DNA of 64,000 nucleotides from Escherichia phage SUT_E1620. Below are positions 35,839 through 47,879 of this stretch, in pieces; position 1 is the stretch's first letter; the number at the start of each line of letters is the position of its first letter. A program made the translations under genes and the position numbers. The notes below the pieces were generated by a model, which searched no databases, was not told the DNA's origin, and saw only the letters and a list, made by a program, of their open reading frames with translations. The stretch is from the sequence record OQ939939, one strand, 5' to 3'.

Positions 35839-36984
35839 ATGACTACTTTACTAAACCTGAATTGGGATCATACTAACGCTGACCTTTTCCTGGGCGATTC
35901 TCTTGGTATCGCAGATTACGTTCGTGTAGCACATCCTGAACTTGAGCGTCTAGCACTTCTGCAACGTTCTCAATTTTGGACTGAAACTGAAATCAGTCTG
36001 GAAGCCGATAAGAAACAATGGCCAAACCTTCCGCGTGATATTCAGGAAATTACTCTCCTGAACTTAGCATGGCAGACCCAAACAGATTCTTTCATTAGCC
36101 GTGCTCCTGAAGCAGCTATTATGCCGCTTGTAAGCCGTCCTGAATTGGAGGGTATGCTCAAGCAGTGGAGCTACTTCGAAGATCTGCACAGCCGTGCGTA
36201 TAGTAATATTATTCGTAACGTTCTGACTGATCCAGCAGAATTTATTGATTCTGTAACTAAAAACCAAGAAGCATTTGCACGTATCGCAGATTCTGTTGAA
36301 CTGTTTGATGAATTGTATCTGTTAGGTCAGTATTTCCTTGCAGTACGTAATCATCGTGGTGATAATACTTATCCAGAAACTGAGTTCCCTGAAGTTAAAC
36401 GTGAAACTCAGGCTAAGCTGTTAGATGCTTACTTTGCAATCTACGGTCTGGAAGCAATGCAGTTCTACGCATCCTTTGCATGTACCTTTGCTCTAGCAGA
36501 GAACGATATTCTGCAAGGTATTGCTAAGAACCTGCAATTAATCGCTAAAGATGAAGCTCTACATACTCAAATGTCTAAAGCTATCATCCAGATTATGTTC
36601 CAGCAGTTTGATAAAGATCTGGTAGACGAAGCATTAGCTAAAGCACCAGCACAACTCCTAAAAACTCTGAAAACTGAGATTGAATGGGGCCACTTTATCT
36701 TTAAAGGCCGCAGTCTGATTGGTTTGAACGCAGAATTGCTTGAAGAATACCTTTACTTTGTAGGACGTAACGCATTTATGCACATTGGTGTAGAATGGCC
36801 AAACCACTTACCTGTAATTACTAAGAATCCGATTCCGTGGATCATGAACTGGTTGGATACTACTTCTCTACAACCTGCTCCGCAAGAGATTCAGATTGGT
36901 GCAGCCTACCGCGTAGGTCAAGTCACAGAAACCTCTGCTGATACTCTGAAAGATCTTGGCAACGAATTTGAGGGTATGTTCTAA
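35839..36984 (+). CDS. nrdB: Ribonucleoside-diphosphate reductase small subunit
   Basis: 381 aa; di-iron ligand motifs (ExxH pairs), directly downstream of nrdA. Confidence 0.85.
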   Translation: MTTLLNLNWDHTNADLFLGDSLGIADYVRVAHPELERLALLQRSQFWTETEISLEADKKQWPNLPRDIQEITLLNLAWQTQTDSFISRAPEAAIMPLVSRPELEGMLKQWSYFEDLHSRAYSNIIRNVLTDPAEFIDSVTKNQEAFARIADSVELFDELYLLGQYFLAVRNHRGDNTYPETEFPEVKRETQAKLLDAYFAIYGLEAMQFYASFACTFALAENDILQGIAKNLQLIAKDEALHTQMSKAIIQIMFQQFDKDLVDEALAKAPAQLLKTLKTEIEWGHFIFKGRSLIGLNAELLEEYLYFVGRNAFMHIGVEWPNHLPVITKNPIPWIMNWLDTTSLQPAPQEIQIGAAYRVGQVTETSADTLKDLGNEFEGMF

Positions 36985-37514
36985 TGATAGCAGCAATCTA
37001 TGCAACTGGGCCGAATGGGGAGTTCGGCCTCAATGGTAAACTCCCTTGGGGTTCTTTCAAAGAAGAACTAAATACTTTTTATGCTACTTTGGATTCTCTA
37101 GCACCTGATAATATTATTGTAGGAGCAGGAACTTGGTTAGCCTTCCCTGAGACTCTGCAAAAAAGAATACTAGGAGATTCTGACCTATTTATTTATGCAA
37201 ATAGACCACTACCTAACTCTGTAGGATCAGCTACACGCATAAGCAACATTGGATACCGTCTGCCTGATTTTCTCAAGGAAGAGGTAACTGTAGTATTAGG
37301 GGGAGCAACTCTGCTTCTTGAAATGTATGTCAAAAATCATCTAGATATGGCGTATATCTCTACTATTACTTCAGCCACACCATTATCTGCTGATGTACAT
37401 CTACATCATCATATTACTTTAACTAATTCAATGGCAACTAGAATGGACTATGTGGCAGGACAGAATGCAGATAAAACGCTTTCATTCTTACAAGAATTGG
37501 TGATATTTAAATGA
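36984..37514 (+). CDS. Dihydrofolate reductase
   Basis: 176 aa; N-terminal IAAIxxxGxxG...LPW motif; precedes thymidylate synthase. Confidence 0.75.
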
Positions 37515-38365
37515 AGCAATATATTGAAACTGGAAAACGTATTCTTGAAGAGGGTGTATGGGTAACGAATCCTAGAACAGGGGTTCGTTGCCTAACCATT
37601 ATTGATGCAGACTTTACCTTTAACGTAGGAGCAGGAGAACTGCCGCTAGTAACTACTCGTAAAGCATTTGCTAAACAAGCAATAATGGAAATGATCGGAT
37701 ATCTCCGTGGGTACGACTCAGCAGCACAATTCCGCGCTATTGGTGTTAATACATGGAATGCTAATGCAAATGAAAATATTGCTTGGCTAGGTAATCCATT
37801 CCGTAAAGGCGAGGATGATATGGGACGAGTCTATGGTGTTCAAGGACGTCATTGGACTAATTCTGATGGTATGGTATTTGATCAGTTAGCCAAAGTCTAT
37901 CATAATTTGAAAAGAGGGATTGACGATCGTGGAGAAATTTTAACTTTTTGGAACCCTGGGGAATTTCGTAAAGGATGCCTACGTCCGTGTATGCATACCC
38001 ATCAATTCTCTATTTTAGGTGATACACTATACCTAAACTCTTTCCAGAGGTCTAATGATTTCTTGCTGGGCCAAGTATTTAATATGGTGCAATGCTATGC
38101 ACTTCTAGCTATTATGGCACAGATTACAGGTCTTAAGCCAGGTATTGCTCGTCAAAAGATTATTAATCTTCATATCTATGAAGATCAGTATAATGTTCTG
38201 ATGGAGCACAAGCAATTCGATCGTGAACCTTTTGCATCTCCTACTTTAGAAATCAATCCAAATATTAGAACTTTGGATGATGTATTAACGTGGGTAAGTA
38301 AGGATGATTTTACTGTTCGTGGCTATGAACACCATCCTGCTATTGCATATCCATTTACGGTGTAA
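37511..38365 (+). CDS. thyA: Thymidylate synthase
   Basis: 284 aa; catalytic-Cys region [10 protein letters not shown], conserved N-terminal region. Confidence 0.85.
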
Positions 38366-38368
38366 CAT

Positions 38369-38722
38369 ATGTTAATTATACTATTATTTGTCATATTCTT
38401 TCTAAAACATTTTATGGCCGATTATCCACTCCAAACACCATATATGCTAGGAAAGACGCATAAAATAGGGTGGAAACTTCCATTATTAACCCATTCGCTA
38501 GTACATGCTGGATTAACATTTGCAATTCTAATCCTATTCACATCACCAGGAATGTCTATAGCTTTAGCTATTATGGAATTAATTCTACACTTTATTATAG
38601 ATTATTGGAAAGCACAACGCTGCAAATACGCTATAAGCGATGCTAAGTTTTGGATAGCTTTAGGATTTGATCAGTTACTGCATTATCTGACATACGCCCT
38701 AATAATCTTGATTATAATCTAA
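38369..38722 (+). CDS. Small integral membrane protein (117 aa)
   Basis: Multiple hydrophobic helices; terminator follows. Confidence 0.55.
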   Translation: MLIILLFVIFFLKHFMADYPLQTPYMLGKTHKIGWKLPLLTHSLVHAGLTFAILILFTSPGMSIALAIMELILHFIIDYWKAQRCKYAISDAKFWIALGFDQLLHYLTYALIILIII

Positions 38723-38726
38723 TTCA

Positions 38727-38755
38727 AATAGCCCTTCGGGGCTATTATATTTAAA
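38727..38755 (+). terminator. Rho-independent terminator
   Basis: TAGCCC-TTCG-GGGCTA hairpin followed by TTATATTT. Confidence 0.7.
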
Positions 38756-38800
38756 TTTCATTTGCTTACTGAGTGAAATTCAAATATAATATACTTCTAA
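38755..38800 (+). promoter_or_regulatory. Sigma70-type early promoter
   Basis: TTGCTT (38762-38767), N17, TATAAT (38785-38790). Confidence 0.7.
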
Positions 38801-38820
38801 TTTGACAGAAGGATTTAATA

Positions 38821-39399
38821 ATGACAGCCATAGTAGCATTTAAATATAAAGATAAAGTATACTTAGCTGGTGATCGTATGGGTTCTAATGGCTATACGAA
38901 ACTGCTGGTTAAAAATCCGAAAGTATTCAAAATCTCTGATGATTTGTACTTCGGATACACTAGTTCCTTCTACATGGGACAATTACTAGAGCATAGCTTT
39001 ACTGTACCACCACGTTTAGCAGATATTTCCGATGATAAATATTTATATACGGAAATAGTACCTAAATTACGTGATATGTTTAACCAGAAAGATTTTGGCG
39101 AAAAGAAAAATGAAAAATATGCTGAACCTAATCTGGGACAATTTATTATGCTCTACAAAGGAAGAATCTTTATTTTCCAATCTAATGCTTCTATTCTAGA
39201 AGTTGAACATGCCGGTGTAGGCTGTGGAGGAGAAGATGTACTTTCCAGTATTCGTACAGGTTTAGCTATTGCGGATTGTCGAGCCACAGATTTAGATGTA
39301 GATGATATATTTGAAATCATTGATCTGGCTTTTACGCATTGTGCAGATTATATGTGTGGTGTATCTTCTCAACATGATGTTTTAGTAATTGGAGAATAA
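38821..39399 (+). CDS. Putative Ntn-hydrolase (HslV/proteasome beta-subunit-like peptidase)
   Basis: N-terminus MTAIVAFKYKDKVYLAGDRMGSNG parallels HslV [24 protein letters not shown] (Thr after initiator Met, AGD motif). Confidence 0.5.
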   Translation: MTAIVAFKYKDKVYLAGDRMGSNGYTKLLVKNPKVFKISDDLYFGYTSSFYMGQLLEHSFTVPPRLADISDDKYLYTEIVPKLRDMFNQKDFGEKKNEKYAEPNLGQFIMLYKGRIFIFQSNASILEVEHAGVGCGGEDVLSSIRTGLAIADCRATDLDVDDIFEIIDLAFTHCADYMCGVSSQHDVLVIGE

Positions 39400-39401
39400 A
39401 T

Positions 39402-39671
39402 ATGTCTATTCTTTTATCTGCTTTAGAAGCAAAACAAAATACTATTGCTAGCATTAAAAAGGAAGTAATTGACCTAGAATCACTTATTGCCGTAGAGATT
39501 GACAAAGCTATTAAAGATAAAGAATTTAATTGTCACATCCAGGGATTAACTGAATACTCAGAAAACGCTAGAAATAGCGTCATGCAAAAACTTAGCAAAC
39601 TAGGTTATGTTGTAGAAGCTAAGTATGAACAGCGTGAAGGTTTTTGGCTTGAAATTGATTGGAGCAAATAA
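39402..39671 (+). CDS. Hypothetical protein (89 aa)
   Basis: ORF tightly packed between neighbours. Confidence 0.5.
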   Translation: MSILLSALEAKQNTIASIKKEVIDLESLIAVEIDKAIKDKEFNCHIQGLTEYSENARNSVMQKLSKLGYVVEAKYEQREGFWLEIDWSK

Positions 39672-40147
39672 TGTCGGTTTTCCACATATATACAGATGGT
39701 GCATGTAAAGGCAATCCTGGTTTAGGTGCGTGGGGATTCGTTGTCTATAATGATAATGATGATCGTATTGGCTCTAAATCTGGCTTCAGCCCTAAAACTA
39801 CTAATAACGAAATGGAACTTACTGCAATTGTAGAAGTTCTTCGTTGGTCTACTAAGAAAGATAATCGTCCAGTAATTATCTACACTGATTCTGCTTACTG
39901 CAAAAATGGTATGGAAAGCTGGATGTGGTCTTGGCAGAAGAAAGGCTGGAAGAAGGGAGATGGTGAAACTCCTCTTAATCTAGAACTCTGGCAAGAAGCA
40001 TTTAAACTAACTCAACAGTATATTAACTTCCATGATACCAATCCAACCTTTGTTAAGGTTAAAGGTCACTCAGGTATTCGTGGTAATGAAGAAGTTGATG
40101 CTCTATGCAATACTGTAATTACTGAGCAAGAACTTGCTGAGATGTAA
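39659..40147 (+). CDS. Ribonuclease H
   Basis: HIYTDGACKGNPG, MELTAIVEVL, IYTDSAY and C-terminal GNEEVDAL motifs of RNase HI. Confidence 0.85.
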   Translation: MEQIMSVFHIYTDGACKGNPGLGAWGFVVYNDNDDRIGSKSGFSPKTTNNEMELTAIVEVLRWSTKKDNRPVIIYTDSAYCKNGMESWMWSWQKKGWKKGDGETPLNLELWQEAFKLTQQYINFHDTNPTFVKVKGHSGIRGNEEVDALCNTVITEQELAEM

Positions 40148-40509: not shown

Positions 40510-40560
40510 AAAATTCATTTGCTAAACGCTTCAAAATTTCGTATAATATATCTCATAAAT
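40510..40560 (+). promoter_or_regulatory. Sigma70-type early promoter
   Basis: TTGCTA (40519-40524), N17, TATAAT (40542-40547), downstream CATAAATTGATCAAC box. Confidence 0.75.
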
Positions 40561-40585
40561 TGATCAACAAAAAGGAAAACAAATA

Positions 40586-41101
40586 ATGGCTAAGCAGAAA
40601 AACGCAAAAACTCAGGCAGCTCCGGCAGTTAAAACTTTCGCTCAGACCGAAGCCAATCGTAAGGCTCGTCTGGAACGTCATCTGCGTAAGCATCCTACTG
40701 ATGCTCAGGCTCAGACTGCCCTGAAGTCTGCGGCTCCGGTTCGCCAGAAGCCGAAGGCCAAGAACTCTACTCGCGCAACTGCTAAGCAGGTTGTGTTCAT
40801 CAAGGGTGAAGGTCATAAGTCTGTACCGGTAACTCTGAGCTTTAACGGCGGTGCTGAGATGTTCGCCCGCAACGGTATGGCTCTGAAAGACTACGAAAAA
40901 GCAGTCAATCAGAAGCGTAAGCCAATGGCTGACGTAATGCGTGAATCCCGTGGACAGTTTGGCTCCGTTAAACCGAATATCTTCGGTGTAGAGTACAGCC
41001 GTGACAACGTTCGCGCTCTGTGCTATGGTATCGGTATTAAGTTTACTGGTGCTTCTGATCGTAAATCCGCTAAACCTGCTCGTAAGCGTAAAGCGAAGTA
41101 A
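40586..41101 (+). CDS. Lysine/alanine-rich basic protein, likely highly expressed (unknown function)
   Basis: 171 aa; strong RBS AAAGGAAAAC; host-optimal codons; the 190-aa minus-strand ORF over the same DNA is judged antisense artefact. Confidence 0.65.
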   Translation: MAKQKNAKTQAAPAVKTFAQTEANRKARLERHLRKHPTDAQAQTALKSAAPVRQKPKAKNSTRATAKQVVFIKGEGHKSVPVTLSFNGGAEMFARNGMALKDYEKAVNQKRKPMADVMRESRGQFGSVKPNIFGVEYSRDNVRALCYGIGIKFTGASDRKSAKPARKRKAK

Positions 41102-41107
41102 TGATTG

Positions 41108-41125
41108 ATGGGGCGAAAGCCCCAT
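41108..41125 (+). terminator. GNRA-tetraloop hairpin (weak terminator or processing site)
   Basis: TGGGGC-GAAA-GCCCCA hairpin, weak T-tract; motif recurs at ~41388 and ~43337. Confidence 0.4.
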
Positions 41126-46934: not shown

Positions 46935-47879
46935 ATGTTTACTAAAAACACTAAAGAACTGACTTCCGATCAAAAAGTAATTCGTACTATTAAACGTTGG
47001 GGTGTTGGTGCTGTAGTTGGTCTTGGCGCTCTTATTCTGGCTCTCAATTCCTATACAGTTGTTCAGGACGGTACGGTTAAAACTCAGACTTTCCTGGGTA
47101 AAGTTAGTCCTAATCCTGTATTGCCGGGGTTCCATATTGTTAACCCATTTGCTTCTTTTGATACTTTTAGTACGAAAGATATTTCCATGAAACTGGATAA
47201 ACTTCAGGTTCCTAGCCAGGATAAGTTTAAGTCTACTGTTGACATTACCGTTATGTTGCAGTTTGATGGTGCTAAAGCTCCTATGAACCGTGTTAACGCA
47301 GGTACTCAGGATCAAGCTCTGAACAAGTACGTTGAAGAGAAGATGCTGTCTACGATTCGTGAGTTTGGTAAGTCTGTACCAAAAGCACAAGATCTGTTCG
47401 ACGCTAAGATTCAGGCTCAACTGCAAACCGCTATTCAGCAAGAAGTAGAAGAGTACGCGCGCCCTTATGGTTACACCGTTAAGCAAGTATTCCTTCAGGA
47501 TATTACTCTGCCACCGGTAATTATGGAACAGGTACAGAACACCAAAGTTCGTGAAGAACAAGTTAACGCTGCAAAAGCTGAACTGGCTCGTGTTGAACAA
47601 GAAGCACAGCAGAAAGTTAAGCAAGCTGAGGCAGATCGTTCCGCTCGTGAAAATATGGCAGTAGCTAACGAACGTGACGCAGATGCTAAACTGTACGCAG
47701 CTAAGAAAGAAGCTGAAGCTAACGCCGCTCTGCAACGTACCATTACTCCTGAAATGATTCGTTGGAAGCAGCTGGAAGTTGAAATGCTTCGTGCTGAAAA
47801 ATACCAAGGTGGTGTACCGCAGACTGTTGTCGGTACTGGCTACGATGGTCAAATGATCATGGATATGCGTAACAAGTAA
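46935..47879 (+). CDS. SPFH/band-7 (prohibitin-like) membrane protein
   Basis: N-terminal TM helix (WGVGAVVGLGALILAL), SPFH-like core, C-terminal coiled coil; 341-aa minus-strand ORF here judged antisense artefact. Confidence 0.7.
   Translation: MFTKNTKELTSDQKVIRTIKRWGVGAVVGLGALILALNSYTVVQDGTVKTQTFLGKVSPNPVLPGFHIVNPFASFDTFSTKDISMKLDKLQVPSQDKFKSTVDITVMLQFDGAKAPMNRVNAGTQDQALNKYVEEKMLSTIREFGKSVPKAQDLFDAKIQAQLQTAIQQEVEEYARPYGYTVKQVFLQDITLPPVIMEQVQNTKVREEQVNAAKAELARVEQEAQQKVKQAEADRSARENMAVANERDADAKLYAAKKEAEANAALQRTITPEMIRWKQLEVEMLRAEKYQGGVPQTVVGTGYDGQMIMDMRNK

Follow-up and report, generated by a model that had tools for sequence, protein, structure and literature searches.

A predicted proteasome-type threonine peptidase in the thy-rnh interval of a T5-like Escherichia phage

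Escherichia phage SUT_E1620 (sequence record OQ939939) belongs to the T5-like phages, genus Epseptimavirus (Demerecviridae). In the 64,000-nt stretch of its DNA analysed here (the window), the open reading frame (ORF) at positions 38821-39399 on the + strand is predicted to encode a proteasome/HslV-type N-terminal nucleophile (Ntn) hydrolase. We favour, with reasonable confidence, the view that its product is a catalytically competent, compact group I proteasome-type threonine peptidase subunit, most probably of the AAH family, which would be made early, form rings and act without a dedicated phage unfoldase. The gene is real; genes of its kind are ordinary in large lytic phages, and it has already been annotated and catalogued. 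Its product begins MTAIVAFKYKDKVYLAGD, as a preliminary description of the same DNA had given, and is identical to GenBank WKV24362.1 of SUT_E1620.

Fold, active site and conservation

The features of the gene and its product are listed below. Residues are counted from the initiator Met, which makes Thr2 the nucleophile (Thr1 once Met is removed).

38821-39399, + strand: coding sequence of the proteasome-like peptidase, ATG start, 192 aa, predicted T1-type, group I, AAH-like Ntn hydrolase
38809-38813, + strand: Shine-Dalgarno sequence AAGGA, read from the sequence, 7 nt before the ATG
Active-site residues of the 192-aa protein: Thr2 (nucleophile), Asp18, Lys34, Gly45 (oxyanion-hole position) and Gly134-Cys135-Gly136 (at the Ser129 position)
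Helices of the AlphaFold2 model: H1 50-59, H2 71-89 (predicted local distance difference test, pLDDT, >90), H3 137-153, H4 160-177

The fold is recognized by profile searches and by structure prediction. Residues 2-189 match positions 5-188 of the 189-position Pfam profile PF00227 (Proteasome) at 36.2 bits (cut-off 22.4), and PHROG 1040 ('peptidase HslV family') is matched with an E-value of 1e-20. A PDB search with the single sequence gives a weak match to 20S beta7 (E 0.013), covering the N-terminal 80 residues only. Profiles built from homologues reach E. coli HslV (1.2e-9), T. maritima HslV (1.4e-9), actinobacterial 20S beta (9e-7) and BPH (beta-proteobacteria proteasome homologue; 1.4e-5), HslV being the best sequence-profile match among solved structures. 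An AlphaFold2 model made from 18 homologues has a pLDDT of 90.8 and a predicted template modelling score (pTM) of 0.88. Its elements run in the order S-S-S-S-S-S-H1-H2-S-S-S-S-H3-H4-S, with both helix pairs (H1/H2 and H3/H4) present and H5 absent; after H2, which ends at residue 89, comes an 18-residue loop of lower confidence, and the following strand starts at 108. In a Foldseek search of the PDB, HslV and BPH rank first with a probability of 1.0, and the structural closeness to HslV is no greater than that to BPH or 20S beta. Judged from sequence and model together, the protein is a proteasome/HslV-type Ntn hydrolase. This upholds the fold proposed in the preliminary description; neither the profile searches nor the structure prediction assigned a different one.

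The active site can be followed residue by residue. Profile alignments pair Thr2 with Thr1 of mature HslV and of Mycobacterium PrcB, Lys34 with HslV Lys33, and G134-C135-G136 with the G-S-G of HslV. The parallel with the HslV N-terminus that had been pointed out earlier (Thr after Met, then AGD) takes in Asp18, the Asp of AGD: together, Thr2, Asp18 and Lys34 lie on Thr1, Asp17 and Lys33 of HslV and 20S beta, and they are invariant. In an alignment of 168 sequences drawn from 50%-identity clusters, Thr2, Asp18, Lys34, Gly45, Gly106 and Gly134 are 100% conserved and Ser49 and Gly136 99% conserved; loss of the catalytic Thr was looked for and not seen (present in 168 of 168). There is no propeptide, since 160 of the 167 retrieved relatives start with Met-Thr, and most with MTCIV. 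The residue equivalent to Ser129 is Cys in 62% of the family and Ser in 32%, and is Cys135 in the phage protein. A near-invariant, family-specific motif, G-Y-T-S-S-F-(R/Y)-M-G-Q-L-L, runs across the oxyanion-hole Gly into the first part of H1.

The family is large. A word-indexed search found only 19 relatives, and an exhaustive profile search against representatives of 50%-identity clusters returned 6699 at E<=1e-3, of which 832 reach E<=1e-30; nearly all of the alignments begin at residue 1. The family numbers at least 6699 such clusters at E<=1e-3. Some metagenomic and phage members carry C-terminal extensions of 60-200 residues, in which an acidic linker is followed by a short helical motif like (K/F)(Y/F)PHNIG..KL; considered as hints of a fusion partner, these extensions gave no Pfam match and no likeness to any ORF of the window.

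Compared with its orthologues in phages phiR2-01 and S124, the peptidase gene has a dN/dS of 0.03-0.07 at a dS of about 0.6. Strong purifying selection and an intact catalytic apparatus mark it as a functional gene.

An accessory gene between thy and rnh

The surroundings of the gene are as follows.

35839-36984, + strand: nrdB-like gene
36984-37514, + strand: DHFR gene
37511-38365, + strand: thymidylate synthase gene (thyA)
38369-38722, + strand: DUF3307 membrane-protein gene, the upstream neighbour, a separate accessory insert before the putative terminator
38727-38746, + strand: stem-loop with an 8-bp stem and a UUCG loop, followed by a U-rich tract; -12.2 kcal/mol, z -3.5; conserved in T5
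38762-38790, + strand: sigma-70-type promoter, with -35 TTGCTT (38762-38767), a 17-nt spacer and -10 TATAAT (38785-38790)
39402-39671, + strand: 89-aa ORF (phrog_13270, function unknown), beginning 3 nt past the peptidase stop
39659-40147, + strand: RNase H gene (rnh), the last gene of a probable unit formed by promoter, peptidase gene, 89-aa ORF and rnh

The gene had been placed between thymidylate synthase and RNase H. It does lie inside the thyA-rnh interval; its direct flanks are the DUF3307 gene and the 89-aa ORF. It had also been said to stand behind its own consensus promoter. The promoter is real, of T5 type and homologous to an annotated T5 promoter, and only the word 'consensus' has to go: the -10 is a perfect TATAAT, and the -35 matches the consensus at 3 of 6 positions, which is also why a generic scan did not list it. 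The simple promoter/terminator scan missed the stem-loop as well, and both elements were found by reading, folding and aligning to T5. The 100 bp upstream of the peptidase gene are 79% identical to the T5 thy-rnh intergenic region, with the hairpin and both hexamers conserved, and the T5 annotation has a promoter feature (46937-47011) in its thy-rnh gap. The stem-loop probably terminates the upstream thyA/DUF3307 transcript.

In T5, the order is thy, hairpin, annotated promoter and rnh, with no gene between. Relative to T5, the window has the DUF3307 gene as an insert ahead of the hairpin, and the peptidase gene and 89-aa ORF as inserts behind the promoter. The gaps within the unit of peptidase gene, 89-aa ORF and rnh are tiny or overlapping; the peptidase gene is probably the first of a transcription unit that runs into rnh, with the 89-aa ORF co-transcribed.

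Some gene starts in this region can be read in two ways. For RNase H, the ORF list uses TTG 39659, inside the 89-aa ORF, and RefSeq relatives use ATG 39671 (MSVFHIY...); this ATG and the stop of the 89-aa ORF overlap, which is consistent with translational coupling. The DUF3307 ORF has 117 aa from its first ATG and RefSeq relatives give a 102-aa product (309 nt), which leaves its true start uncertain. Further downstream, a 190-aa ORF (40553-41125, - strand) lies antisense to a DUF7022 gene (40586-41101, + strand); it is probably spurious, because both Pfam and PHROG strongly support the gene on the + strand.

Among T5-like phages, the region between thy and rnh is an accessory-gene hot spot (window 38366-39671), in which the three inserts (DUF3307 gene, peptidase gene and 89-aa ORF) are independent of each other. 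T5-like records contain the peptidase gene (at least 90% identity) about 125 times, the 89-aa ORF about 218 times and the DUF3307 gene about 153 times; T5 and roughly two thirds of T5-like records are without the peptidase gene. Over the 1.4-kb region, identity to the Salmonella phages bastian and Sepoy and to Escherichia phage IrmaTschudi is 99.7%. In phiR2-01 (a Yersinia phage) and S124 (a Salmonella phage), the peptidase gene stands alone between thy and rnh, and in Erwinia phage KEY it stands at the same place with other small neighbours. The DUF3307 gene is missing in T5, phiR2-01 and S124, and the 89-aa ORF in phiR2-01 and S124. The 89-aa ORF and the DUF3307 gene were considered as obligate partners of the peptidase and rejected on these differing distributions, both being missing in phiR2-01 and S124.

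Since T5 and most of its relatives lack the gene, it should be dispensable for the basic lytic cycle. Its accessory status would also suit a decaying gene, or a catalytically irrelevant subunit or decoy that co-assembles with host HslV or sequesters HslU to disable host proteolysis. We give this reading very little credence: none of 168 diverse members departs from the catalytic Thr, Asp and Lys or from the oxyanion Gly, the dN/dS is that of a strongly constrained gene, no N-terminal extension like that of alpha subunits is present, and the family also occurs in bacteria without HslV according to Table 1 of PMC8665760.

A phage-borne proteasome-like peptidase had been thought unusual in the preliminary description, and this did not hold. 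Proteins of the same 90% cluster already bear such names in RefSeq ('peptidase HslV family'), UniRef ('Proteasome subunit') and GenBank, others being 'proteasome subunit-like protein', 'putative proteasome' and 'protease'; BFVD contains 28 viral cluster representatives with a proteasome-like fold at E<=1e-3; and phage-borne proteasome homologues were described in 2021 (PMC8665760). The paper on Alteromonas phage V22 only lists a 'Proteasome-like' gene. In the literature searched, phage members come up only in mentions at the level of annotation and in the 2021 survey, and no functional study of one was found.

Phages of Aeromonas, Vibrio, Psychrobacter, Xanthomonas and Salicola, as well as Asteriusvirus jumbo phages, have remoter homologues (30-42% identity). 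These often stand amid nucleotide-metabolism, PhoH, Sir2 or ClpP-like genes, with no neighbour in common. No conserved partner gene was found among the neighbours in Erwinia phage KEY, Aeromonas phage 4L372XY, Vibrio phage 2.058.O and coliphage 121Q; only KEY shares neighbours with the window (RNase H and a 92/95-aa ORF), through T5-like synteny. Likewise, the annotation of the 41 kb examined around the phage bastian orthologue contains no unfoldase or AAA+ gene.

Several local arrangements were seen in these phages. In Escherichia phage 121Q (3065-5572 of the stretch examined), genes for a ClpP-like protease, an 86-aa predicted membrane protein, the proteasome-like protein and a Sir2-like protein stand in a row, and T5-like phages likewise encode Sir2-like and PhoH-like proteins nearby. 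In Vibrio phage 2.058.O (2498-4531 of the stretch examined), a peptide deformylase is encoded three genes upstream of the proteasome-like gene; deformylation comes before removal of Met, which would expose Thr1, and the proximity may be a coincidence. Some myophages have two adjacent proteasome-like genes, a 183-aa family member followed by a different paralogue. In Aeromonas phage 4L372XY (4001-5397 of the stretch examined), the paralogue is gp206, 275 aa, which starts V-TTIAYKNG and has Thr at position 2, and in Vibrio phage R16F (2501-3489 of the stretch examined) a 114-aa 'nucleophile aminohydrolase' adjoins. Such pairs hint at hetero-oligomeric particles in those phages. A search of the 366 six-frame ORFs of the 64-kb window with the family profile hidden Markov model and with the Aeromonas gp206 paralogue found no second proteasome-like ORF.

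Bacterial relatives and placement within group I

Proteasome homologues have been surveyed by Fuchs, Alva and Lupas (Bioinformatics 2021, PMC8665760), whose group I comprises HslV, BPH, AAH, CPH, PPH and others, found in bacteria and bacteriophages. Gene context was uninformative in this survey, and no co-occurring AAA+ partner came to light. PPH, at about 140 residues and without H2, is called there 'the first true viral member'; membership of the phage protein in PPH is ruled out by its length of 192 aa and the confident H2 at 71-89.

We scanned one genome per bacterial species for the family motif and obtained 391 loci. The best 80 of the 391 are mostly from Streptomyces and other Actinobacteria, alpha-proteobacteria (Azospirillum, Mesorhizobium, Rhizobium, Devosia, Skermanella and Ensifer), Myxococcota (Polyangiaceae and others) and Paraburkholderia, with a few from Bacilli; Streptomyces is the commonest source. 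All 80 examined loci encode proteins of about 180 aa with the predicted start M-T-[CVA]-[IV], and NCBI names the bacterial relatives mostly as hypothetical. When the ORFs within 4 kb of the 80 loci were clustered, gene context proved to be conserved at no more than genus level. A hybrid histidine kinase, the one neighbour family that crossed phyla, belongs to a promiscuous family and was rejected as a coincidence.

We consider it quite likely that the phage peptidase belongs to AAH, an assignment set by its compact H1-H4 architecture and by its taxonomic distribution. Like AAH, the model of the phage protein is a compact subunit with H1-H4, without insertions and without S12/H5, built around a Thr1/Asp17/Lys33/Gly core. 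Its relatives likewise come chiefly from Actinobacteria and alpha-proteobacteria, the distribution from which AAH takes its name (PMC8665760), besides some Bacilli and many phages, and neither a conserved gene context nor an AAA+ partner was found for the family here, as PMC8665760 also reports. The two differ in that Myxococcota (Polyangiaceae) and Paraburkholderia are also prominent among the relatives found here.

Proposed function and comparison with known systems

In the mechanism that we propose, the gene would be transcribed early from the T5-type promoter, as the first of the short unit with the 89-aa ORF and RNase H. Met-Thr N-termini are substrates of methionine aminopeptidase, and E. 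coli HslV, which also starts with Met-Thr, matures without a propeptide. The host enzyme would strip Met1 from the phage protein in the same manner and expose Thr as the N-terminal nucleophile. This Thr1 would serve as nucleophile and general base and work with Asp17 and Lys33, the invariant Gly providing a backbone oxyanion hole. The subunits would stack into a homo-oligomeric ring like that of HslV or BPH, with the active sites sequestered; we expect such a ring because all structurally close relatives form one. The resulting particle would cut peptides and unfolded or loosely folded proteins during infection, with no dedicated phage-encoded unfoldase. A more pointed version of this idea, in which a stand-alone early phage protease selectively destroys host proteins (defence, stress-response or regulatory) with no ATPase partner, is conceivable but unlikely.

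The preliminary description suggested instead a pairing with host HslU- or ClpX-type unfoldases. In such a scheme, the ring would act as a surrogate of HslV and dock on host HslU (or ClpX) to give a phage-redirected ATP-dependent protease. E. coli and Salmonella hosts possess HslU, the best profile match among solved structures is HslV, HslV is also a top structural match, and the Met-Thr start without propeptide is that of E. coli HslV. By sequence and model, however, the phage protein is not an HslV orthologue. A scan of NCBIfam at E<=1 did not report the HslV model, its sole match being TIGR03690 (20S_bact_beta) with E 0.038 and 13.7 bits (cut-off 191.9); the protein is 15-19% identical to HslV; and the segment that runs from the oxyanion Gly through H1, H2 and the pore loop to the next strand is about 11-15 residues longer than in HslV (47-104 in the family, 49-95 in HslV), the excess in the H2-to-strand pore loop being about 15 residues. 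A very short pore loop has been linked to HslU gating and a longer one to the unfoldase-independent BPH (PMC8665760). The same survey lists no HslV for Actinobacteria (Table 1), where Streptomyces is the commonest source of relatives, and reports no co-occurring AAA+ interactor for these families. The pocket of E. coli HslV that receives the HslU tail includes Phe54 and Phe57 (PMC6429459), and the family has near-invariant Gly53 and Leu56 at these positions, a weak point drawn from an ungapped extrapolation. Pairing with HslU or ClpX is thus left unsupported by the presence of the family in Actinobacteria, the longer pore loop and the lack of a conserved AAA+ neighbour, and we regard it as improbable.

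Another alternative is a non-degradative Ntn enzyme with one phage or host target: a sequence-specific processing protease, a transpeptidase/ligase (cf. connectase) or an amidase. The GYTSSF(R/Y)MGQLL motif, which lies beside the active site and is absent from HslV, could form a specific substrate pocket, and the replacement of Ser129 by Cys would fit as well. Against this reading, the H1/H2 and H3/H4 helix pairs that make ring contacts are present and the S3/S4 helical insertion that defines connectase is absent (PMC8665760); on balance it seems doubtful.

A compact, ring-forming AAH peptidase is the reading that we retain, and four points weigh against it. The placement in AAH was made by architecture and distribution, which makes it probable rather than definite; the published AAH representative, WP_035979212, was not recovered among the accessions looked up for the bacterial relatives. 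Cys at the Ser129 position departs from canonical proteasomes. Connectase shows, by analogy, that the same fold can support a non-degradative reaction. Finally, the literature searched contains no biochemical or genetic data on the phage protein or on any AAH member.

If the more pointed version holds, with a stand-alone early protease that destroys selected host proteins, Epseptimavirus phages that grow on E. coli K-12, such as TrudiRoth and IrmaTschudi, which carry the same gene, would provide the first tractable genetic system for AAH function. A large family spread over lytic phages, Streptomyces, rhizobia and myxobacteria has, in the literature searched, no experimental study of any member. 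T5-like coliphages are easily manipulated and the gene is naturally present or absent in close relatives, which makes them a convenient entry to the question of what benefit the peptidase brings to a virus, and equally to whether such particles work without an unfoldase.

Among the known systems, HslV shares with the phage protein the Ntn fold, a size of about 175-190 aa, the Met-Thr start without propeptide, the identically numbered Thr1, Asp17 and Lys33, and the G-x-G motif. It differs in having Ser in its G-S-G where the phage protein has Cys, and AGFAGGTADAF in place of the family's GYTSSF(R/Y)MGQLL; moreover, the phage gene is not linked to an hslU gene. BPH (PDB 5ovs, 5ovu) is likewise a compact group I protein with a longer pore loop and has no known unfoldase partner (PMC8665760, PMC5777263). 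Its sequence-profile match to the phage protein is weak (E 1.4e-5), and its pore loop is highly acidic, whereas that of the phage protein (KDFGEKKNEKYAEPNLGQ) is of mixed charge with a net of about 0 (family median -1). BPH forms heptameric double rings. Compared with 20S beta subunits (PF00227, MEROPS T1), the phage protein lacks a propeptide, H5/S12 and a partner gene for an alpha subunit, and is encoded by a single gene. Connectase, in which H1/H2 are missing and an S3/S4 insertion of two helices covers the active site, was rejected as an identity for the phage protein, which has H1/H2 and is without the insertion (PMC8665760).
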